Shown: one piece after another, positions 1 to 58,100 of the stretch | Layout: each line of letters opens with the position of its first letter | Numbering within the stretch: position 1 is the stretch's first letter | DNA from: an uncultured Candidatus Saccharibacteria bacterium | Lineage (GTDB): Bacteria > Patescibacteriota > Minisyncoccia > Phycocordibacterales > CAIZLB01 | NCBI GenBank assembly: GCA_964368945.1 | Contig: CAYJDM010000002.1 | Location: 85,386-149,385, forward strand | DNA length: 64,000 nucleotides | Direction: 5' to 3' | Program-made: the position numbers and the translations under genes | The notes under the pieces: generated by a model | Told to the model about the DNA's origin: nothing | What the model saw: the letters and a program-made list of their open reading frames with translations, nothing else | The model's database searches: none

Positions 1-445
1 AGTCTTCTTCATGACATCGCCAGAGCAGGGAGCTCTTACCGTGAAACAGATCGGCACGCTATCAAAGAAGCATCCGCCTTATTTCTTTGATCCTCAGCTG
101 CAGACAGGCTTCGCTGACTATAAGCGCATCCTTGGCGGCACAGATCAGCTCGAAGGAGCGCAATTCGTCTGGGTAAAAACCGATCAGGCCAAAGCGGATG
201 CATTCAAGGCTGCTTTCAAGGAAAAGTACAATAAGGAGCCTGAATCCCTCGCTGATTTCGGATTCGATGCCTTCAATACGCTCATGGCTGCTCGCGCCGC
301 AAGCGTTACTGATTGGAAGGGCAATATCCAAGATACCGATACCGTTGGCGCCTCTGGAGAAATCAAATTCGACCAGAACAATGTGCGCATCCAGGGTATT
401 TCGATCAATACGATCAAGGGCGGGGAGATTGTCGTGGTTAAGTAA
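1..445 (+). CDS. ABC-type branched-chain amino acid transporter substrate-binding protein (LivK/LivJ-like), C-terminal fragment. The ORF is open from nt 2, so the 5' end lies outside the window.
   Basis: The frame is open to the window edge. The C-terminal region (FVWVKTDQAKADAF...GEIKFDQNNVR...IKGGEIVVVK) has the layout of periplasmic Leu/Ile/Val-binding proteins. Confidence 0.5.
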   Translation, partial: VFFMTSPEQGALTVKQIGTLSKKHPPYFFDPQLQTGFADYKRILGGTDQLEGAQFVWVKTDQAKADAFKAAFKEKYNKEPESLADFGFDAFNTLMAARAASVTDWKGNIQDTDTVGASGEIKFDQNNVRIQGISINTIKGGEIVVVK

Positions 446-6010: not shown

Positions 6011-7765
6011 ATGTTCATCGAATCATCCCAATTGCGAGATGCCTTGCTCGAGGCCAAGATCGTTTCTGAAAAAGATTTCGACAAGGCCTTTGCCGAAGCG
6101 GAAGAAAAGCAGAAAGAAGTCGGCGAAATTCTCATCTCCGGAGGAAAGATTTCCGACGATGATTATCGCCGCATTCTCGCTCATGTTCTCGGCGTGCCAT
6201 TCATCGATCTCAAGCCGATGAAATTGGAATTCGAAGTCCTCTCTCTCATCCCTGAGCCGATCGCGCGCAATCACAATATCGTCGCATATGCGAAGAAGGA
6301 GGATTCGCTCGAAGTCGCTATGCTCGACACTGATGATTTGTCAGCTATAGATTTTGTCAAAAAGAAAACCGGCATGCGCATCCTGCCTCGGCTGACGAAT
6401 GCCGAGTCGATGAAGTCCGCGCTCATCCAGTACCAAAAGACCTTGAAGGCGGATTTCGGAGACATCATCCAGCAGGAAGCATCGAATCTCAAGATGCTCG
6501 CATCAGAAGAAGGGAAGGAGGCGAGCGGAGAGGATCTCAAGAAGCTCGCGGAAGATCTGCCAGTTATTCGAATCGTCGATACTTTGCTGAAGCATGCAGC
6601 GCTTCAGGATGCATCCGATATTCATATCGAGCAAAGCGAGAACGAAGTGATCGTGCGATATCGAATCGATGGAATGCTCCACGATGCCATGGTCTTGCCA
6701 AAGAATGCCGGATCCAGCATCACTGCTCGAATAAAGGTTTTATCAAATCTCAAGCTCGATGAAAAGCGGCTTCCACAGGATGGCCGATTCAAGATCGAGC
6801 TCAATGGAGAAAAGATCTCATTCCGAGTTTCCATTTTGCCTACATATTATGGAGAAAAAACCGTAATGCGATTATTGCGCGAAACGGTTTCTGGATTCAC
6901 GCTTGAGAAGCTGGGCTTTCATGGACGCAATCTCGAAGTCATTCATGAGGCGACGAATCTATCCGATGGCTTGATTCTGACGACAGGGCCTACCGGTTCA
7001 GGAAAGACGACGACGCTCTATACTGTTCTCGATATCGTCAATCAGCCCGACGTGAATATCTCTACGGTAGAGGATCCGGTGGAGTATCAGATGAAGCGCG
7101 TCAATCAGACTCAGGTAAAGCCCGAGATCGGATTCACATTCGCATCAGGATTGCGATCATTGCTTCGACAGGATCCGGATATCATTATGGTGGGAGAAAT
7201 CCGAGACAATGAGACTGCTGCCCTTGCGATCAATGCCGCTTTGACGGGTCACTTGGTGCTTTCCACTTTGCATACGAACTCGGCAGCCGGCGCGATCCCG
7301 CGATTGATCGATATGAAATGCGAGCCCTTCCTCCTCGTTTCTACTTTGCGCGTCATCATCGCTCAGCGCTTGGTCCGACGATTGCATAAGGCTCAGAATC
7401 CCGCGCCTCTTACAAAAGAGGAATATGAGGCGATTGCCAAGCATGTCGATATGGACAAGGTGCTCGATGCTCTCCAGACGGAAGGCATAGTTGAAAAAAA
7501 CGCCACATGGAAGACGGTTCCGTTCTATAAGCCCGTTCCTGATGCCGAAAGTCCCGATGGATACAAGAGCCGAATCGGAATTCATGAGGCGCTCAAGATC
7601 TCTCCAGCGATTCGAGAAATGGTTATCAAGGGCGAAACCAGCGATGCCATCGAAAAGCAGGCGCGATCTGAAGGCATGCTTACCATGATCGAGGATGGCG
7701 TCTTCAAATGCGCGCAGGGAATGACGACGCTCGAGGAAATCCTCCGAGTTGTCAGCGTCGAATAG
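6011..7765 (+). CDS. pilB: Type IV pilus assembly ATPase PilB (GspE family).
   Basis: An N-terminal T2SE_N domain, Walker A (LTTGPTGSGKTTTLY), Walker B and Asp/His boxes, and a tetracysteine-less C-domain. Confidence 0.85.
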   Translation: MFIESSQLRDALLEAKIVSEKDFDKAFAEAEEKQKEVGEILISGGKISDDDYRRILAHVLGVPFIDLKPMKLEFEVLSLIPEPIARNHNIVAYAKKEDSLEVAMLDTDDLSAIDFVKKKTGMRILPRLTNAESMKSALIQYQKTLKADFGDIIQQEASNLKMLASEEGKEASGEDLKKLAEDLPVIRIVDTLLKHAALQDASDIHIEQSENEVIVRYRIDGMLHDAMVLPKNAGSSITARIKVLSNLKLDEKRLPQDGRFKIELNGEKISFRVSILPTYYGEKTVMRLLRETVSGFTLEKLGFHGRNLEVIHEATNLSDGLILTTGPTGSGKTTTLYTVLDIVNQPDVNISTVEDPVEYQMKRVNQTQVKPEIGFTFASGLRSLLRQDPDIIMVGEIRDNETAALAINAALTGHLVLSTLHTNSAAGAIPRLIDMKCEPFLLVSTLRVIIAQRLVRRLHKAQNPAPLTKEEYEAIAKHVDMDKVLDALQTEGIVEKNATWKTVPFYKPVPDAESPDGYKSRIGIHEALKISPAIREMVIKGETSDAIEKQARSEGMLTMIEDGVFKCAQGMTTLEEILRVVSVE

Positions 7766-9522: not shown

Positions 9523-10026
9523 ATGAAAACAATTGATAAAAAAAACAAGGCAGCCAATATCGGGCAGCGAGGATCTGGAATGATCGAGATCCTCATTGCT
9601 GCTGCTCTCATGGGCGTAATCCTCATCGCCGTCATCAATGTCTATTCCTCTCTGACCGCGCTCTCTCTCCAGAATACCGACAAGATCCAGTCAACGTTCC
9701 TTCTCGAAGAGGGCGTTGAGGCGATCCGGACGATGCGAGATGCGAGCTGGTCCAATATTTCCAATATGACGGTTGGTCAGACATATTATCTGCGCTTCCA
9801 GAGCGGTGCATGGCTGGCAACGACGACGCCTCAGATCGTCGATGACTTCTGGAGAACCGCGACTGTCAGCAATGTCAGCCGGGATGGAAGCTTTAATATA
9901 GTATCGAGCGGAGGGACGGTTGATGCCAATACCCGAAAGGTCCAGATATCGGTTGCATGGGAGGTCAAAACAGGGACAACTACTAGGTCTGTCGATACCT
10001 ATATCTTTAATACATTCGGCAATTAG
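9523..10026 (+). CDS. Pseudopilin / minor pilin.
   Basis: N-terminal RGSGMIEILIAAAL, with E at +5 after the cleavage Gly. Start placed at ATG 9523, after the upstream stop. Confidence 0.6.
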   Translation: MKTIDKKNKAANIGQRGSGMIEILIAAALMGVILIAVINVYSSLTALSLQNTDKIQSTFLLEEGVEAIRTMRDASWSNISNMTVGQTYYLRFQSGAWLATTTPQIVDDFWRTATVSNVSRDGSFNIVSSGGTVDANTRKVQISVAWEVKTGTTTRSVDTYIFNTFGN

Positions 10027-10052
10027 CAGGCGGCCCAGAAATTTTTATCCAT

Positions 10053-10601
10053 ATGAAAAAAATCGCAAAGCTCAATAAGGGAATGACCGTAGTGGAGGTG
10101 CTTATCTACCTCTCGATTCTCGTGGTAATGCTTGCTGCCATCACCCAGTCAGTTCTCCTCCTCACGACGCATTATCGCGCGGTTCGAAATACAAGGGATA
10201 TCGAGGATTCAGCAATCGCCGTCATGGACAGAGTCGTGCGAACCGCGAGAGGCGCAGACGATATCGTCATGACTTCAGCGTATGGATCATCGACTCCTTC
10301 CGGCACGGATCCGAGCACCGTGAGCTTTATAACCAATGATTCCTCAACGGGGCTTTCCACTACAACCATGTTCACTGTCGATCAATCGACGCGAAAGATC
10401 CTCCTCTACGAAAACGGCGTATATCTTGGTCCTTTGACGAAGGAAAGCGTGCTCGTCATCGGATTCAAGATCAATCACATTATCAGCGCGAATTCCAAGG
10501 CCATTCGAATCGAGCTCAGCCTCCTTTCTGATCAGGCGACGCCGGCGGTCATCTCGAAGAACTTCTACGATACCGTCGTCTTGCGAGGCACATATCGATA
10601 A
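10053..10601 (+). CDS. Pseudopilin / minor pilin.
   Basis: Prepilin motif KGMTVVEVLIYL. Confidence 0.7.
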   Translation: MKKIAKLNKGMTVVEVLIYLSILVVMLAAITQSVLLLTTHYRAVRNTRDIEDSAIAVMDRVVRTARGADDIVMTSAYGSSTPSGTDPSTVSFITNDSSTGLSTTTMFTVDQSTRKILLYENGVYLGPLTKESVLVIGFKINHIISANSKAIRIELSLLSDQATPAVISKNFYDTVVLRGTYR

Positions 10602-22962: not shown

Positions 22963-23001
22963 TTGACAATATTGCATATATATGATATTATATATATGCA
23001 A
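22963..23001 (+). promoter_or_regulatory. Consensus sigma70-type promoter (TTGACA-17-TATTAT) overlapped by a 30-bp palindrome, TTGCATATATAT-GATATT-ATATATATGCAA. Putative operator.
   Basis: Hexamers at 22963-22968 and 22986-22991. The 12-bp perfect inverted-repeat arms are at 22972-22983 and 22990-23001. Confidence 0.5.
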
Positions 23002-23037
23002 TAGCAATTCAGACTAACCCACCAACCCGGTAAAATC

Positions 23038-23319
23038 ATGCACGCATTCCAGTTCATTCAGCAAATCATCGATGAAAATCCCAAAGCTTCTGCCTGTGCC
23101 CATGTTTTCATGGCGTATACAAGGGATGCTCTCAATACGAGCGCTACCTTGGTGGCCAACGGTCAGAAGGGTCTGGTGAAGACCAGGATTCTGACCTTTA
23201 ACGAAGTCTACGACGGCCTTCAGGGCATCGCTAGCGAATGGCCAGCCTCGGCGCGCCAGGAGATTCTGAAGGAGGCCATGGACATCGCGGATTTCATCCA
23301 CGGTCTCCAGCTCAGATGA
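23038..23319 (+). CDS. Hypothetical 93-aa protein downstream of the palindromic promoter.
   Basis: An ORF with a promoter upstream and a terminator downstream. No recognisable domain. Confidence 0.3.
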   Translation: MHAFQFIQQIIDENPKASACAHVFMAYTRDALNTSATLVANGQKGLVKTRILTFNEVYDGLQGIASEWPASARQEILKEAMDIADFIHGLQLR

Positions 23320-23347
23320 GCGACCCTGCCAGGTAACTGGCCCGGAA

Positions 23348-23385
23348 CCCGAGTCCCGCTTTATGCGGCGCTCGGGTTTTCTTCT
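23348..23385 (+). terminator. Rho-independent terminator after the small ORF.
   Basis: CCCGAG...CTCGGG stem with GC extension, followed by TTTT. Confidence 0.55.
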
Positions 23386-51285: not shown

Positions 51286-51942
51286 ATGAAAAACAATAAA
51301 ATGAAAATGTCTCTACGCATAGGAGCATTGGTTCTCGCCGGAGTGCTCATCGGGGTAACCGCAAGCGCTCGAGCCGCGTGGACTAATCCTACGGCAACCC
51401 CTCCATCAGGAAATGCCGATGCGCCTTTGAATACTGGCTCGACTGCTCAGGGCAGGATGGGTGCGCTTTCAATTGGAAAAACATCGCCCACTTCAGGCAT
51501 CGCCCTCGATGTCGTAGGCAATGCCGCGGTCAATACGGGCGGGCTCGCGATCGGAACCTCTTCTACTTCAGGTGTCGCTCTCAACGTGAACGGATCTTCC
51601 GTCATAAATTCCATCGGAGTATTCAATTTGGTTGTCGCAACGGGCACTCCTGCTGCAGGCAAGGTCCTCACATCAGTCGATGGGGTGGGAACGGCAGGCT
51701 GGCAGACTCCTACCGCATCGATCCCGACTCCTACGTTCTATTCATATACCGGGGATATGCCAGGCTGGAATTCCGCTACGCAGACAATGTGGATCACGAT
51801 TGGAAGCTATTCATATTGCGCGATCAACAATATGGGTTCAGTTAACAACTTCGTAGCCCGAGTCCGAAAGAATGTTTCTACTGGCCTATGGCAGGTACAA
51901 TATGCCGGCATGACAGACGGATTCGGCGTCGCTTGTTTCTAA
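51286..51942 (+). CDS. Hypothetical secreted protein.
   Basis: Signal peptide. Gly/Thr/Ser/Ala-rich beta-type repeats. Confidence 0.45.
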   Translation: MKNNKMKMSLRIGALVLAGVLIGVTASARAAWTNPTATPPSGNADAPLNTGSTAQGRMGALSIGKTSPTSGIALDVVGNAAVNTGGLAIGTSSTSGVALNVNGSSVINSIGVFNLVVATGTPAAGKVLTSVDGVGTAGWQTPTASIPTPTFYSYTGDMPGWNSATQTMWITIGSYSYCAINNMGSVNNFVARVRKNVSTGLWQVQYAGMTDGFGVACF

Positions 51943-51976: not shown

Positions 51977-53257
51977 ATGAAGAATAAAAAAACAAAATCA
52001 TCCCTGCTGTCAGGCCTCATCGTGATGGCTGCTGCGGCCGCTTGCTTCGCCGTTTCGCTTTTTAGCGAGACGCCAAGCGTCGCCAATGCTCAAGGAGCTT
52101 CTGGAAACGTTGCCGGATTCGCTTGGTCTGCCAATACAGGATGGATTTCCTTCAACTGTACTAATACTTCTACATGCGGCACCATCTCATATGGCGTCAA
52201 TGTGGATGTGACTACAGGAAGCACGACTGGCTATGCCTGGTCTTCCAATGTCGGATGGATTTCCTTCAACCCTTCAGATCTTGCGGGTTGCCCAAGCGGA
52301 ACATGTGCCGCAAAGCTCCAGAGCGTAAGCGCGACGAATCAGAAGGGCGATAAGCCTCTCACTGGCTGGGCCAAGGCCGTACTTGGCGGCACCGCCGGAA
52401 CTGCCGGCTGGGATGGCTGGATCAGGCTCGATCATACTCAGAACAATGCGGTCTCATACAATTTCAAGACGCAGCAATTCACAGGATGGGCTTGGGGCTC
52501 TGATGTCATCGGCTGGATAAGCTTCAACTCACAGAACCAGGGAACCTCTCCGATATATGCCGTGACAGGTCCCGCTCCGACGATTCCGATCGACGATGTA
52601 TATGCTCTCGGCGGAATAGCCACGAGCTCGAAATGCGATGCTTCCAATGCCTCATATCTTGAAGTATCGGCTCCCGTAAACGGAAATGTCGGCCCTGATT
52701 TCACATATTCTGGATACTCAGTCACTTCCGCAGGAACGGTAAGCGCTTTGCCGACCGGATCGCTCTATGATGCGAGCAGCAGAATCGTATTCAAGCATTT
52801 CGTCTCTACGACAAGCCCATCATACAGATACGCGATCTATGCGCGAAGGACGAGCACGGGCGAATCCACTTCGACGGCGACATCGACGCTTACGGGCCTC
52901 AAATCGACTTTCACTTGCGATACGAATATGCCAGTCGATCCAGCCTCATTCAAATTCACTTCAAAGTCCTTCATTCTCAATCCCGATACGGTAAATGTAG
53001 GCGATCAATGCGTGGCATTCATGAGCTTTACCCATGACGGGGTGATTGATTCACAGGTAAGCGTAAATTGTACGCTGACAAGCCCTCCGGCAGCTCCTAT
53101 TGATCTGGGCTATCAGCTTACGAGCACCAGAAATGTAAATCCTGGCCTCCATACATATTCATGCACATTGGCAAGCTCGACGAATCCATCGACGATATAC
53201 AATACCTTCTCGATCTCTCGACGATGCTATAAGTCGACAGACGTAAAGGAGATCTAG
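51977..53257 (+). CDS. Hypothetical secreted protein with three G-[FYW]-AWS-x-N-x-GWISFN repeats.
   Basis: Signal peptide. Repeats: GFAWSANTGWISFNC, GYAWSSNVGWISFNP, GWAWGSDVIGWISFNS. Confidence 0.5.
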   Translation: MKNKKTKSSLLSGLIVMAAAAACFAVSLFSETPSVANAQGASGNVAGFAWSANTGWISFNCTNTSTCGTISYGVNVDVTTGSTTGYAWSSNVGWISFNPSDLAGCPSGTCAAKLQSVSATNQKGDKPLTGWAKAVLGGTAGTAGWDGWIRLDHTQNNAVSYNFKTQQFTGWAWGSDVIGWISFNSQNQGTSPIYAVTGPAPTIPIDDVYALGGIATSSKCDASNASYLEVSAPVNGNVGPDFTYSGYSVTSAGTVSALPTGSLYDASSRIVFKHFVSTTSPSYRYAIYARRTSTGESTSTATSTLTGLKSTFTCDTNMPVDPASFKFTSKSFILNPDTVNVGDQCVAFMSFTHDGVIDSQVSVNCTLTSPPAAPIDLGYQLTSTRNVNPGLHTYSCTLASSTNPSTIYNTFSISRRCYKSTDVKEI

Positions 53258-53376: not shown

Positions 53377-54183
53377 ATGGCCAGCAGTCTCAAGCTCAAG
53401 ACCCCAGAAGAAATAGCGATCCTCAGAGAAGGGGGTCGGCGTCTCGCCTTGATCCTCAAGGAACTCGAATCCATGGTAAAGCCAGGGGTTTCTTCTGCGG
53501 ATTTGGAAATGCGCGCTCGGGAGCTCTGCGCTCAGCATGAGGGCAAGCCGGCATTCATGGGGTATACGCCACGAGGCGCGGACCGGCCTTTTCCCGCAGC
53601 GCTCTGCCTGACAGTAAACAATGGCGTCGTCCATGGAATTCCTCATGAGAATCCGTATACGATCAATGAGGGCGATCTGGTGACCTTGGATATGGGCTTG
53701 ATCTATAAGGATATGATTACGGATTCAGCGATTACTGTCGCATGTGGAGATACGCTTGATAAAAAAGCCCGCGCCCTCCTCGAAGCCGGACAGAAATGCC
53801 TCGAAGCTGGAATCTTTGCTGCTCGAGCAGGAGCAAAGACAGGCGATATAGGTCATGCCATTGCAGAGGCCTTGGAATTTTATACAAAAACATATGGCTT
53901 CCATTTCGCAGAAGGACTAGGCGGACATGGAGTAGGATATTCCGTGCATGAGGATCCTTTCGTGCCGAACTTCTCTAGGCCGAATCAGGGCGTGGTGCTC
54001 GAGCCAGGACTCGTCATCGCCATAGAGCCTATAGTCAATGAAAAAGGCGAAGGCATAGTCCTCGAAGACGATGGCTATACGATCACCACCGAAGACGGCG
54101 GCAGAAGCGTTCACTTCGAGCATACCGTGGTAATTACGGCAAATGGAGACGACAGAGGCGCGGATATTTTGACCCAGGCTTAG
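53377..54183 (+). CDS. map: Methionine aminopeptidase, type I.
   Basis: Pita-bread fold. Metal ligands D, D, H, E, E are conserved (HGIPHE..., GHGVGYSVHE). Start at the ATG after the terminator and promoter. Confidence 0.85.
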   Translation: MASSLKLKTPEEIAILREGGRRLALILKELESMVKPGVSSADLEMRARELCAQHEGKPAFMGYTPRGADRPFPAALCLTVNNGVVHGIPHENPYTINEGDLVTLDMGLIYKDMITDSAITVACGDTLDKKARALLEAGQKCLEAGIFAARAGAKTGDIGHAIAEALEFYTKTYGFHFAEGLGGHGVGYSVHEDPFVPNFSRPNQGVVLEPGLVIAIEPIVNEKGEGIVLEDDGYTITTEDGGRSVHFEHTVVITANGDDRGADILTQA

Positions 54184-54189
54184 CCGACT

Positions 54190-55015
54190 AATCAAACAGG
54201 CCATCCATCAGGATTACATGGCGGAAAACGGGAAATAAAAAACCCGCCGCTGTATTCAGGGGCAGGGTGTATGAGCGCGTATGCTCGTGCATTGCATGGA
54301 AGGTTCCAGGCGGATGAAGGGATACGGCCCTCCATCCGCCCGTCTGCGTGCCGGCTTTCGCCGACCGCACGTTTGGTTCCTGGCGACGGCGTTATGGCTG
54401 TTTGAGCCTGCACCGCACCGGTATCCTCCTTTGGCTCCCATGACGAGAGCGTCGTCATGTCTGGCAAGTGCAGACCCTAATGGCATAAGTGCTATGCCGG
54501 GCCTGGAGCCATCCGCATGAGAGGACATGTATATAATAGCATATATAGGACATCCTGTCAAGTATATGTAGAAAATAAAAAAGCCGCTCCGATCGATTGT
54601 CGGATGCGGTCAATTTGGCGTCTGAGCGACGCGGTGGAACGTGCAAAAGGGTCTGAGCAAGGATCTATATGGTGAGGCGGACAGCGCTGCGAGAACTGGC
54701 GGAAAAGCCAGCCTCGCAGCGCCCGGTGCCCCGGCCCGACGGGCCTGTTGCTGACTGCGACACCGCCTCTCGCGTCCGCATGCATATCTCGGTGGCCATT
54801 CGGCGGTATTTGCGCATTCGGCTGCGCTTCACCGTCTGCCTTCTTGCGGACTCATTAAGTTTTGCATATCTGATATATAAGTCAATCTGCGAATATTCTA
54901 GAGACGATCGCCTGCTGGCGCGAATTTTGCATCCAGAATTTTACCACACTTGCTCGTTTCGTCCTCCGCAGCATGGGTATGGAGATAAAATCGGAAGCGA
55001 GGACCGGACAAACGA
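54190..55015 (+). ncRNA. Candidate large structured noncoding RNA, or degenerate region. About 830 bp, GC-rich and ORF-free. Family unknown.
   Basis: No ORF with a coding signature on either strand. GC is well above coding neighbours. Multiple strong local hairpins: GGCGGATG/CATCCGCC, CATGACGA-gagcg-TCGTCATG, GGCATA/TATGCC, GCCGCATCCGA-type. Confidence 0.3.
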
Positions 55016-55120
55016 ATGGGCGCGGAATTGCATTTCAGATATCTTGTCACATGTCTTCTGTTCAGCCTTCGCAGGAGGCACCATGTAATACAGGAAAATT
55101 TATTCGAACGACGAGGACAG

Positions 55121-58100
55121 ATGAAGGGGGAACATGTGATAAGATATTTACTAATGGAACACGAACTCGCTCCTTCGCATTCATATGAAGGAAAACAATT
55201 TCGCAATGCCGAAGAGGAATTGGCGTATTTGCGGCAAGTGATTGTCGAGAAGGAGGCGCGCATCGCAGCCGATACAGAGCGACGCGCTCAGGAATATCAA
55301 AAGCTCGGCATAAATCCGGCGGAGACCATCGACGGCGCGCCGATGACAGCAGAAGGCCGCGAAAAAATGATTGCTGCAGAAGTGGCGCACTATACGAAGC
55401 AGGATGCTGATCGCGTTTTGCATGAGCATTTCGCCATGCCTGCCGAGCATGCAAAGGACGCCGCTGCCGCGATGAATGCAGAACTAGGGCAAGCCATCAA
55501 TCAGGAAATCACTCTCGAGCTTTCTCCTGATGCCGATGATAAGCGCATCGAGGCTCTCATACCGCGCATGTATAGCGAGGGCATTCTCAATACCATTCAG
55601 GTCGTGCGCAATATGAACGACCCTCACCTTGAGGATGATTTTCATCGTTTCCTCACCCAGTATGTGAAGCAGGGTCTGCCGACGCCCGGCCTCAAGGAGA
55701 CAATGCCGGAAGCGAAGGCTTTGCATAAGACCCTCTATGAGGTTTCGCTCCCCGAAGCTGATGCTGAGAAAGAAGGCCAGAAGCGCACGCTCAAGGAAAT
55801 CATCTCGTCGATGGAACAGTTCTATTCAGGCATGCTTTCTGTGGATGATCAATTCGCGATAGAGCTCGCTGTCTCGGAGGGGAGCGAGGAATTCGTCTTT
55901 TATGTTTCGGTGCCGGATGCGACGAAATCGCTTTTTGAGAAGCAGTTCTTGGGGATTTTTCCAGATGCGAAGGTGATGGAGAAAAAAGACGATTACAATA
56001 TCTATAACCCGGACGGCGTATCAATGGCATCGGAGGCGCAGTATGCGCGCAATGCGATTTATCCTATAAAAAACTATGCGGAATTCGATTTCGATCCGCT
56101 CAATGTCGTGCTCAATACGTTTTCTCAGATACGACGCGATGGGGAAGGCGCCGCGATCCAGATCGTCCTCAACCCAAAGAGCATCCATGGCCGCGATTAC
56201 TATACGAAGGAATATAAGCAGGCTCTCGATGAGATCCAGAAGGGAACCAAGGTCAAAGATGCCATCGATATTCGGCATACGCTCCTCGGCAAATTCGGCA
56301 AGGCAGTAGGCGAGATTGGCAAAGGGGTAGCCGAAGAGTTTTCTCCATTGAAAAAATCAGACGAGCAGAAAGCCAAAGAAAAGGAAAAAAAGATCGAGCA
56401 GGGCAAAACGGTCGACCAGATCGCCGTCGATCAGATCACATCAAAGATCTCCTCGCCAATCGTCGAGGTCAATGTGCGCCTCGTTGCATCCGCGCCGAAT
56501 CGAGAGAGGGCAGAGCGCATCCTCTCGGAGCTCGAATCGTCTTTCAATCAATTCGATAATTCACTGGGCAATGCCATCAAGTTCGGCCGGCCGAAAAGCG
56601 TAGGCGATATTCGCGGCTTGCTCCATAAGTTCACATTCCGCCTCTTTGATGAAGGCTCTGCTTTGCCCATGTCGATTCGCGAGCTCAATACCATGATGCA
56701 TTTCCCTGGCGATAGCATCACTGCCCAGCCTCAGCTCAAGCAGAATAAGGCCAATACTGCGCCTGTTCCTATGGGCTTGCCAGAAGGAGGCCTCTATCTC
56801 GGCACGAACAATCATAGAAATCTGCGCACGAAGGTGTATACGACGCCGGAAGACCGCCTCCGCCACTTCTATGTAATCGGACAGACCGGTACTGGAAAGT
56901 CGACCATGCTTCGAAATATGATCATCCAGGATATTCAGGCTGGAAACGGAGTCTGCTTCATCGATCCGCATGGTTCGGATGTCCAGGATATTTTGGCCCA
57001 TATTCCCAAGGAGCGCTTCGATGATGTCATTTATTTCGATCCGAGCTATACGGAGCGGCCGATGGCTTTGAATATGCTCGAATATAATCGCGCATATCCT
57101 GAGCAGAAGACATTCGTGGTGAATGAGCTTTTCTCTATTTTCCAAAAACTATATGGCGGGGTGCCGGAATCCATGGGTCCGATGTTCGAGCAGTATTTCC
57201 GAAATGCCACGATGCTCGTCATCGAGGATCCGGATAGCGGCTGCACATTGCTCGATGTATCGCGCGTGATGTCAGACAAGAAATTCCGAGATCTCAAGAT
57301 CGCGAATTGCAAGAATCCTATTGTCGTTCAGTTCTGGCGAGAGATTGCCGAGAAGGCAGGCGGGGAAGGGGCATTGGCCAATATGGTTCCGTATATCACC
57401 AGCAAATTCGACGTATTCCTCGCGAACGATATCATGCGGCCCATCATCGCGCAGGAGAAGTCCAGCTTCAATTTCCGCGAGATCATGGATGGCAAGAAGA
57501 TCCTGCTCGTGAATCTGGCGAAGGGTCGCTTGGGCGATATCAACTCGTCTTTGATCGGTCTCATTCTCGTGGGCAAAATCCTCATGGCCGCCCTTTCACG
57601 AGTGGACTCTTTCGGCACGAATATGAATCCTTTTTATCTCTATATCGACGAATTCCAAAACATCACCACGCCATCGATCGCAACGATTCTCTCTGAAGCC
57701 CGCAAATACAAGCTCTCGCTCACCATGGCGCATCAGTTCATCGCTCAGCTAGACGACAGCATCAAGGATGCCGTATTCGGAAATGTCGGCTCTATGGCCG
57801 TCTTCCGCGTCGGTGCCGAGGATGCCGAAGTTCTCCAGAAGCAATTCGAGCCTGTCTTCAAGGCCAATGACATCATGAATATCGACAATATGAATTGCTA
57901 TATCAAGATGCTTTCGCATGGCAAGCCTGTGCGGCCTTTCAATATCGAATTCACTTGGCCGGATCATGGCAACGAGGCGATCGTGCCGAGCCTCAAGGAA
58001 TTGTCTTATCTCAAATATGGCAAAGATCGCGCCATCGTCGATGCGGCCATCATACTCAAATACAAGAAGAGCGAGCCTCTGGTGCCTCCGACACCGGTGA

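Follow-up and report, generated by a model that had tools for sequence, protein, structure and literature searches.

The tract between map and the ATPase gene

We analysed a GC-rich intergenic tract in a 64,000-nucleotide (nt) stretch of DNA, here called the window (positions 85,386 to 149,385 of contig CAYJDM010000002.1), from a genome of the Patescibacteria (Candidate Phyla Radiation, CPR). The tract sits at the end of a ribosomal-protein/secY/adk/map cluster, between map and the gene of a large ATPase, and most likely resolves into two tandem minus-strand units, A and B, which are convergent with map and divergent from the ATPase gene. In the best-supported reading, unit A is a stand-alone minus-strand gene for a highly structured noncoding RNA of ~290 nt, with an ortholog at the same place in the relative L082.

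The left boundary of the tract is set by map (53377..54183, + strand), which codes for a type I methionine aminopeptidase (Pfam Peptidase_M24, E 3.6e-41; the exact protein is on record). It is the last gene of the ribosomal-protein/secY/adk cluster and serves here as context only. Its nearest homologs in species-representative genomes, with identities of at most 77%, come from metagenome-assembled genomes labelled Saccharibacteria, Parcubacteria, Taylorbacteria or Paceibacteria. The ATPase downstream, a DUF8128 and TraG-D_C/T4SS-coupling-like protein, follows map in all close relatives. N-terminal alignment places its start at the ATG at 55154 (MEHELAPS...) and not at 55016. A first-pass annotation of this DNA had correctly located the tract between map, which ends at 54183, and the ATPase as the next gene, while its right end has to be moved. 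Because the ATPase start lies at 55154, the intergenic gap covers 54184-55153 and measures 970 bp.

The right-hand edge of the inserted DNA is formed by the block 55137..55156 (+ strand), identified from the sequence and the N-terminal alignment, which holds the ATPase's own promoter (extended -10 element TGaTAAGAT, 55137-55145) and the start codon at 55154; its equivalent lies directly after map in L087, L082 and L083. The ATPase mRNA is apparently leaderless, with the extended -10 element ending 8 nt before the ATG, and this arrangement is kept in relatives (L087:5830-5855; L082:6240-6262).

The base composition of the tract is uneven. Its GC content, first put at about 57%, is 54.8% for 54190-55015, and it is concentrated in two bodies of 60% GC each, at 54237-54526 (290 nt) and 54578-54870 (293 nt). 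These are separated by a 51-bp spacer of 25.5% GC and followed by a tail of 45% GC (54871-55153, 283 bp); the window has a mean of 49.4%, and its remaining intergenic gaps lie at 39-51%. All four helices named in the first-pass annotation are present: GGCGGATG / CATCCGCC at 54309 / 54333, CATGACGA / TCGTCATG at 54439 / 54452, GGCATA / TATGCC at 54482 / 54493, and a fourth at 54583-54611, which corresponds to the terminator of unit B.

Signals and predicted folds of units A and B

Unit A is preceded by a promoter of the sigma-70 type at 54533..54561 (minus strand), found by promoter scan and composed of TTGACA, a spacing of 17 nt and TATTAT with a TG-extended -10 element. It is near-consensus, matching 11 of 12 consensus positions plus the TG; both strands of the 64-kb window hold two such sites, this one and one at 22963. 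The predicted transcription start is at ~54526, and the transcript at 54237..54526 (minus strand) would have ~290 nt and 60% GC with several hairpins. The first terminator is reached 290 nt downstream of the -10 element and leaves 50 nt to the map stop codon. Folding identifies it as an intrinsic terminator (54233..54266, minus strand), whose hairpin at 54266-54243 is followed by U6 and AUUU; the 58-nt 3' segment with this hairpin and the UUUUUU behind it folds at -14.9 kcal/mol. Unit A therefore has what a noncoding RNA gene should generically have, its own promoter and an intrinsic terminator on one strand with noncoding sequence between them.

The predicted RNA is unusually stable, with a minimum free energy (MFE) of -133.6 kcal/mol and a z-score of -5.4 for the sense strand versus -3.4 for the antisense strand. 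As background we folded 40 random 290-nt pieces of the window, which gave z = -0.95 +/- 1.63 with a minimum of -5.4 and values of -3 or below in 7 of 40; unit A is at the extreme of this distribution and is matched by only 1 of the 40 pieces. Its 5' domain (54433..54510, minus strand; local fold -36.5 kcal/mol) is predicted to form a multi-helix junction, with an outer stem GGCUCC/GGAGCC, a stem GGCCC/GGGUC that carries the inserted hairpin GGCAUA/UAUGCC, and a further hairpin CAUGACGA/UCGUCAUG with the loop CGCUC. Towards the 3' end a long hairpin of 14-15 bp (GGGCGGAUGGAGGG / CCCUUCAUCCGCCU; 54308..54343, minus strand) coincides with inverted repeat I3, whose 13-nt arms are 92% complementary. 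A long-range closing helix, pairing nucleotides 13-26 of the unit with 216-229, was also considered; forcing it costs 9.5 kcal/mol and shortens the long hairpin, so it is not favoured.

The 29-nt promoter pattern of unit A, TTGACA-N8-TATATATGCTATTAT, is shared across the clade as a consensus. JGI metagenomes scanned for it gave 83 loci, nearly all of them unrelated genes with a generic strong promoter, and no further units were found among them. In related CPR metagenomic contigs the pattern drives small proteins at L111:1628-1990, L164:6904-6540 (minus strand) and L121:2030-1670 (minus strand), which are either 67-68 amino acids (aa) long with a signal peptide or 78 aa long with transmembrane (TM) segments. 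Within the window, a near-twin of the unit A promoter with one substitution in the 29-nt pattern (TTGACA-17-TATTAT, TG-extended) occurs at 22963-23385 (+ strand). It drives a 93-aa open reading frame (ORF) at 23038-23319 that has a codon score of +0.19 and its own terminator, lies directly upstream of rpsL and belongs to no Pfam family.

Unit B ends in an intrinsic terminator at 54577..54611 (minus strand), seen in both the terminator scan and the folding, in which CCGC.AUCCGA pairs with UCGGA.GCGG ahead of U6. Its transcript would extend at most over 54577..54931 (minus strand), with the body at 54578-54870 at 60% GC. The unit is ~350 nt long if counted from an extended -10 element at 54946-54938 and ~290 nt if it starts near 54866. 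This extended -10 element (TGGTAAAAT; 54938..54946, minus strand), the better of the promoter candidates, matches the motif TGNTAWAAT, which occurs 4 times in the window against ~3.5 matches expected by chance, so that this candidate promoter is not significant alone. In the predicted fold the resulting 5' end, UGCAAAA, pairs with UUUUGCA near the 3' end. Otherwise the body is preceded only by a block at 54860..54900 (minus strand) that emerged from direct repeats D1 and D3 and from the alignment of A with B as a degenerate version of the promoter region of unit A; its -10 hexamer is spoiled (GATATG), and the promoter scan does not call it. Generically, then, unit B has the terminator of a noncoding RNA gene, while its promoter is uncertain.

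In the body of unit B a long hairpin of ~17 bp (GGGCGCUGCGAGGCUGGC / GCCAGuUCUCGCAGCGCU; 54683..54724, minus strand; inverted repeat I11 with perfect arms of 10 nt) is present in both the MFE and the centroid structure, and the fold z-score of the unit is -3.0 to -3.6. Only the promoter-like and terminator-flank blocks match in the alignment of the two units; the bodies do not. The body of unit B shows no similarity to unit A or to the unit of L082, and no Rfam or Pfam match. A third unit at 54975-55040 was considered and rejected, as no hairpin forms there (z +0.9).

Relatives and the unit in L082

The junction between map and the ATPase gene was compared in 14 relatives with 69-81% map identity, in which the gap measures 32-135 bp. 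Because these relatives have so little at the junction, the ~900 bp in the window are regarded as a lineage-specific insert. Among the relatives examined at this junction only L082 carries a unit, and it is the closest of them, with an ATPase N-terminus that is 80% identical compared with 53-69% for the others. The L082 gap of 466 bp holds one minus-strand unit with a 282-nt body of 60% GC. Its 29-nt promoter pattern is identical to that of unit A, its 9-bp terminator abuts the map stop codon, and its fold z-score is -5.9 to -6.4.

At the sequence level the bodies have little in common. Neither blastn nor translated comparisons detect similarity between unit A, unit B and the L082 unit. In global alignment the bodies of A and L082 score better than 299 of 300 shuffles (z 2.6), and the A-B and B-L082 alignments do not beat shuffles in this way. 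The first ~16 nt (GUCCUCUCAUGCGGAU versus GUCUCAGGUGCAGAU) form the best conserved stretch of the A/L082 body, and RNAalifold on the pairwise alignment gives z -2.9 versus column shuffles. A covariance model built from the 3' half of the L082 unit without its terminator finds unit A (54272-54358, minus strand, collinear) as the top match in the window. The score of 17.5 bits (rough E 0.21) is not significant window- or genome-wide, and is suggestive only since synteny had fixed the target beforehand. In the aligned 14-bp hairpin 5 of 14 pairs differ at both positions and all pairs are intact in A, though these counts come from a structure-fitted alignment in which any two long hairpins would align so. 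The L082 5' domain is predicted to fold locally into a similar junction, with an outer stem, a GGCCC/GGGYC stem and a hairpin loop ACGCUC, the stem sequences being different; the likeness of the two modelled junctions is unproven.

From these comparisons we infer that unit A is the ortholog of the single L082 unit at the same place, and that the first ~16 nt and one long hairpin are its best-kept parts. In the best-supported reading the body has diverged almost to randomness, while the unit has kept its length, the 60% GC, the foldedness, the promoter, the 5' end and one long hairpin. Unit B is built on the same plan and would be either a diverged tandem duplicate or a separate acquisition.

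Searches for more distant copies gave little. With blastn the units matched only themselves and promoters in 0.9-1.5 Mb of relatives' loci and in the window, and no further members were found in 0.9 Mb of relatives. Phage and plasmid collections (blastn) and IMG/VR (exact-pattern scans) returned no match, and no pair of inverted repeats flanks the insert; it thus shows neither the inverted repeats, nor the copies, nor the phage or plasmid similarity of a mobile element, a miniature inverted-repeat transposable element or a prophage. Other copies of the same strain give no covariation because they are 100% identical.

The map-ATPase junction is an insertion hot spot. L005, L006, L007, L011 and L014 have 0.8-5 kb at this place (about 6800-7700 and beyond), compared with 20-135 bp in most relatives; the insert in L011 contains a 196-aa ORF (6893-7483) with its own terminator and without a Pfam match. 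Two GC-rich stretches at other places were also observed. In L008, whose map identity is 60%, an orphan unit at 9650-10250 (minus strand) lies between the DUF8128/TraG-like ATPase and ndk. It has a TTGACA-17-TATAAT promoter, is ~590 nt long at 54% GC (locus mean 43%) and ends in a 14-bp terminator followed by U7. It contains no sense ORF of more than 40 aa, has a fold z-score of -3.9 and no Rfam match, and is not similar to the units of the window. In L046 positions 1-262 (+ strand) have 61% GC (locus mean 37%) and stops in all frames. This stretch, cut on its 5' side by the start of the locus, ends in a hairpin and T-run terminator just upstream of rpsN, inside the ribosomal-protein cluster, and has no Rfam match. 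Within the cluster of the window itself, two ORFs of 218 aa and 426 aa (51286-51942 and 51977-53257, + strand) lie between adk and map. They belong to no Pfam family and are syntenic in all close relatives, which marks them as conserved CPR-specific proteins inside the ribosomal/secY/adk/map cluster.

Interpretation of the tract and alternative readings

Judged from sequence, we consider it on balance probable that the tract is a lineage-specific insert of ~900 bp with two independent tandem candidate genes for noncoding RNAs on the minus strand. A noncoding RNA has moderate support in unit A and weak support in unit B. Unit A would be transcribed from its near-consensus, TG-extended sigma-70 promoter up to the intrinsic terminator near the map stop codon, and the resulting RNA of ~290 nt and 60% GC would fold into several stable hairpins. 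With low confidence we guess that the RNAs may act in trans as stable structured regulators, in which the conserved, unpaired and CU-rich 5' end would act as the seed for base pairing and the GC-rich hairpins would stabilize the RNA or bind a protein.

Lineage-restricted small RNAs (sRNAs) are common in bacteria, and tandem paralogs such as OmrA/OmrB and the Qrr RNAs are known. Like the genes of trans-encoded sRNAs, the units have, or in the case of the unit B promoter may have, a stand-alone promoter, a noncoding body and an intrinsic terminator. They are likewise intergenic, narrow in range and arranged in tandem, and they too are best conserved at the 5' end and in the promoter. Unlike typical base-pairing sRNAs, they are longer (290-350 nt), have 60% GC and are more structured, and in contrast to the known tandem paralogs units A and B are not alignable. 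As a lineage-restricted bacterial noncoding RNA gene the tract is a candidate of a well-known type, though itself new and unclassified, and not a demonstrated RNA.

Besides the limits already given for the covariance-model score and the hairpin comparison, several observations weigh against this interpretation. The counterpart of unit A exists in one relative only and its sequence similarity is marginal, and a search with a covariance model of the 5' domain from L082 misses unit A. The antisense strands fold almost as well as the sense strands (z -6.2 for L082 and -3.1 for B). The promoter of unit B is uncertain and its fold excess is ordinary, lying within the upper 15-20% of the background (7 of 40 pieces at or below -3). 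In both unit A and the L082 unit a sense frame is open across the whole transcript, for which the joint chance is ~2% at 60% GC, and in related genomes promoters of this type drive real small proteins. Ranked by their weight, the competing explanations are nonfunctional DNA, then small-protein genes, a cis-acting insulator, and a single large or RNase P-like RNA.

Unlikely, but not negligible, is the possibility that the tract is a nonfunctional residue, either imported GC-rich DNA or a decayed fragment of a gene or mobile element, with fortuitous promoter- and terminator-like signals. The absence of the tract from all but one close relative, the insertions at the same junction in other relatives, the essentially unalignable bodies of A, B and the L082 unit, and the spoiled A-type promoter of unit B are all consistent with it. 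The first-pass annotation had held that the lack of an Rfam match, of expression and of conservation would point to such DNA; no Rfam match is indeed found, and conservation is confined to one relative. Chance signals are nevertheless difficult to reconcile with a unit A promoter that is among the two best in 128 kb (both strands) and is separated from its downstream terminator by exactly 290 nt without coding sequence, and with an arrangement that L082 has retained at a distance at which neutral sites are saturated. Moreover, the unconstrained DNA of this genome has 39-46% GC, so that a content of 60% would decay unless it is maintained or very recent. Pfam and protein searches found no protein remnant, there are no terminal inverted repeats, neither the window nor 0.9 Mb of relatives contains another copy, and matches to phages, plasmids or viruses were not found. 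A recently decayed gene, which had been proposed for this tract, is not supported, given the lack of Pfam matches and of real homologs, a GC content above the coding average and an intact near-consensus promoter together with terminators; translated similarity with frameshifts, the mark of a pseudogene, was not found in the Pfam and protein searches of the ORFs.

Quite improbable in our view is a pair of orphan small-protein genes that evolve fast and use atypical codons, an 89-aa ORF in unit A (54525-54256), which would begin right at the transcription start, and a 55-aa ORF in unit B (54832-54665). The tract had been described as free of plausible ORFs, which is correct insofar as codon usage gives no coding signal; ORFs of 55-139 aa do exist in the region. 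Codon-usage log-odds, trained on 30 genes of the window and calibrated on 90-codon pieces, were +0.27 +/- 0.24 in frame versus -0.32 +/- 0.20 out of frame for real genes, and all ORFs of the tract scored between -0.05 and -0.28, in the non-genic range. Nine ORFs from both strands had no Pfam match. The 139-aa ORF, annotated by one gene caller, matches only itself among 5.8 billion proteins. A 101-aa ORF spanning unit A had one match among 1.84 billion representatives, a TPR-repeat protein that we judge to be a chance match, as three TPR repeats each fit 'ADGxxPGxAxxxLGxAL' weakly and the repetition inflated the score. A search with an X-joined six-frame concatenate of 1647 aa gave no match at E<=10 and was disregarded, since it also missed the known self-match of the 139-aa ORF (P0121).

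What speaks for small proteins is the promoter, together with one sense frame that stays open, in unit A as in the L082 unit, all the way from transcription start to terminator. The same 29-nt promoter drives the 67-78-aa proteins of L111, L164 and L121, with terminators ~270-320 nt downstream, and because it does so this explanation stays alive; the variant with one substitution drives the 93-aa ORF at 23038, and the adjoining ATPase looks leaderless, as the 89-aa ORF of unit A would be. The small secreted or membrane protein genes (L111, L164, L121 and 23038-23319) thus resemble the units in an identical or nearly identical promoter, a length of ~300-390 bp and a terminator. They differ in having clear ORFs with a signal peptide or TM segments, conserved peptides and gene-like codons, none of which the units have. 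Genes score +0.27 in codon usage and the real 93-aa ORF +0.19, compared with -0.18 and -0.16 for the 89-aa and 55-aa ORFs. As peptides, the syntenic ORFs of A and L082 are not similar to each other, while the L111 and L164 proteins are plainly alike, and neither Pfam nor the databases hold a homolog. In unit A the distance from the -10 hexamer to the ATG is only 4 nt, no ATG occurs close to the start of the L082 unit, and the amino-acid composition, rich in R, G, A, P and H, is that expected from translated GC-rich noncoding DNA. The open frame is present but not conserved as a peptide, and its codon usage is not gene-like.

Very improbable is an action in cis, in which two strong convergent units with hairpins would insulate the ATPase gene from read-through out of the ribosomal-protein/secY/adk/map operon. 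Transcription of the units runs towards map, behind which there is no + strand terminator, and the minus-strand hairpins lie in the path of read-through transcription; yet 14 relatives manage with 32-135 bp and without such a module, and insulation would not need a GC-rich body of ~290 nt.

Hardly credible, finally, is one structured RNA of ~830 nt or a known large RNA such as a divergent RNase P RNA, which might be read from the + strand as the 3' untranslated region (UTR) of map or the 5' UTR of the ATPase gene: the tract is GC-rich and hairpin-dense and contains short words that resemble RNase P core motifs, but no Rfam family reaches the gathering threshold, nothing relevant appears at E<=10, ARAGORN finds no transfer-messenger RNA (tmRNA), the 51-bp spacer (25% GC) with its terminator and promoter splits the tract, U-tracts follow hairpins on the minus strand only, and the ATPase gene, whose start is apparently leaderless, is preceded by a conserved promoter of its own (55137-55145), just as in the relatives without the insert. 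The earlier proposal of a large structured RNA thus survives in part, structured RNA being the best-supported reading, with two separately bounded minus-strand units in the place of a single RNA of 830 nt.

The underlying searches covered the known RNA families. In Rfam 15 the whole window had no family match at the gathering threshold. With permissive filters and E<=10 the region 54000-55200 gave only junk hairpin matches and no RNase P, and the L082 and L008 units gave only sub-threshold hairpin look-alikes. In all three cases these look-alikes were microRNA and sRNA models with E 0.3-10. ARAGORN predicted 0 genes in the window, hence neither tmRNA nor tRNA, and no Rfam 15 covariance model of signal recognition particle (SRP) RNA, 6S, Ms1, GOLLD/ROOL/HEARO/OLE/raiA, group I/II introns or riboswitches matched. 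As far as the Rfam models can see, RNase P, tmRNA, SRP RNA, 6S, the large named RNAs, introns and riboswitches are therefore excluded; the comparison with Rfam by cmscan that the first-pass annotation had recommended for these families, riboswitches apart, gave no relevant match even at E<=10. The weak RNase P-like words pointed out there have no model score at E<=10 either, and they lie on the + strand, opposite the transcription signals.

RNase P RNA (RNaseP_bact_a/b) is like the tract in being GC-rich, multi-helical and of a similar order of size, with a few look-alike words of 8-13 nt. It is unlike it in that no covariance model matches at E<=10 and the look-alike words do not share a strand with the promoter and terminators; absence at this locus from 14 relatives would also be unexpected for an essential RNA. 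The RNAs of the 6S, Ms1 and CsrB types, which sequester RNA polymerase or other proteins, are families with a structured body and poor sequence conservation between lineages. The units resemble them in stability, a promoter of the kind found on abundant RNAs, the structured body and the poor conservation. However, the predicted MFE and centroid folds of A, B and the L082 unit are multi-branched and do not form the rod with a central bubble of 6S RNA, and Rfam gives no 6S or Ms1 match. GGA motifs as in CsrB-type RNAs are not clearly enriched, with ~9 in unit A and ~6 in the L082 unit versus roughly 5 expected in a rough count by eye. The template of a diversity-generating retroelement, a retron, an omega-RNA and a bridge-RNA were rejected, since no reverse transcriptase, IscB/TnpB or recombinase adjoins the tract and the window contains no second near-copy. 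A full-text literature search found nothing specific.

To our knowledge, hardly any noncoding RNAs of the Patescibacteria/CPR have been described apart from the universal ones. Bacteria commonly have orphan sRNA-like loci, and the small genomes of the CPR leave little room for junk. If the favoured interpretation of the tract as tandem noncoding RNA genes is true, a strongly promoted structured RNA of ~290 nt would have been gained, duplicated and lost within a narrow lineage, and would offer a handle on regulation in uncultured episymbionts. A wider, rather unlikely proposition is that a previously undescribed family of fast-evolving, GC-rich structured RNAs of ~290 nt is confined to one Paceibacteria/Parcubacteria sublineage, with unit A and the L082 unit as its first two members, and that, more broadly, the reduced CPR genomes carry a class of promoter-to-terminator 'GC-island' RNAs. 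Candidates for this class, which is not established, would be unit B, the 590-nt unit of L008 and perhaps positions 1-262 of L046. In such a class, selection would keep length, GC content and foldedness, and not sequence. If this wider pattern is true, it would mean that structure or composition can be under constraint without sequence, a kind of constraint that standard homology-based RNA discovery misses.

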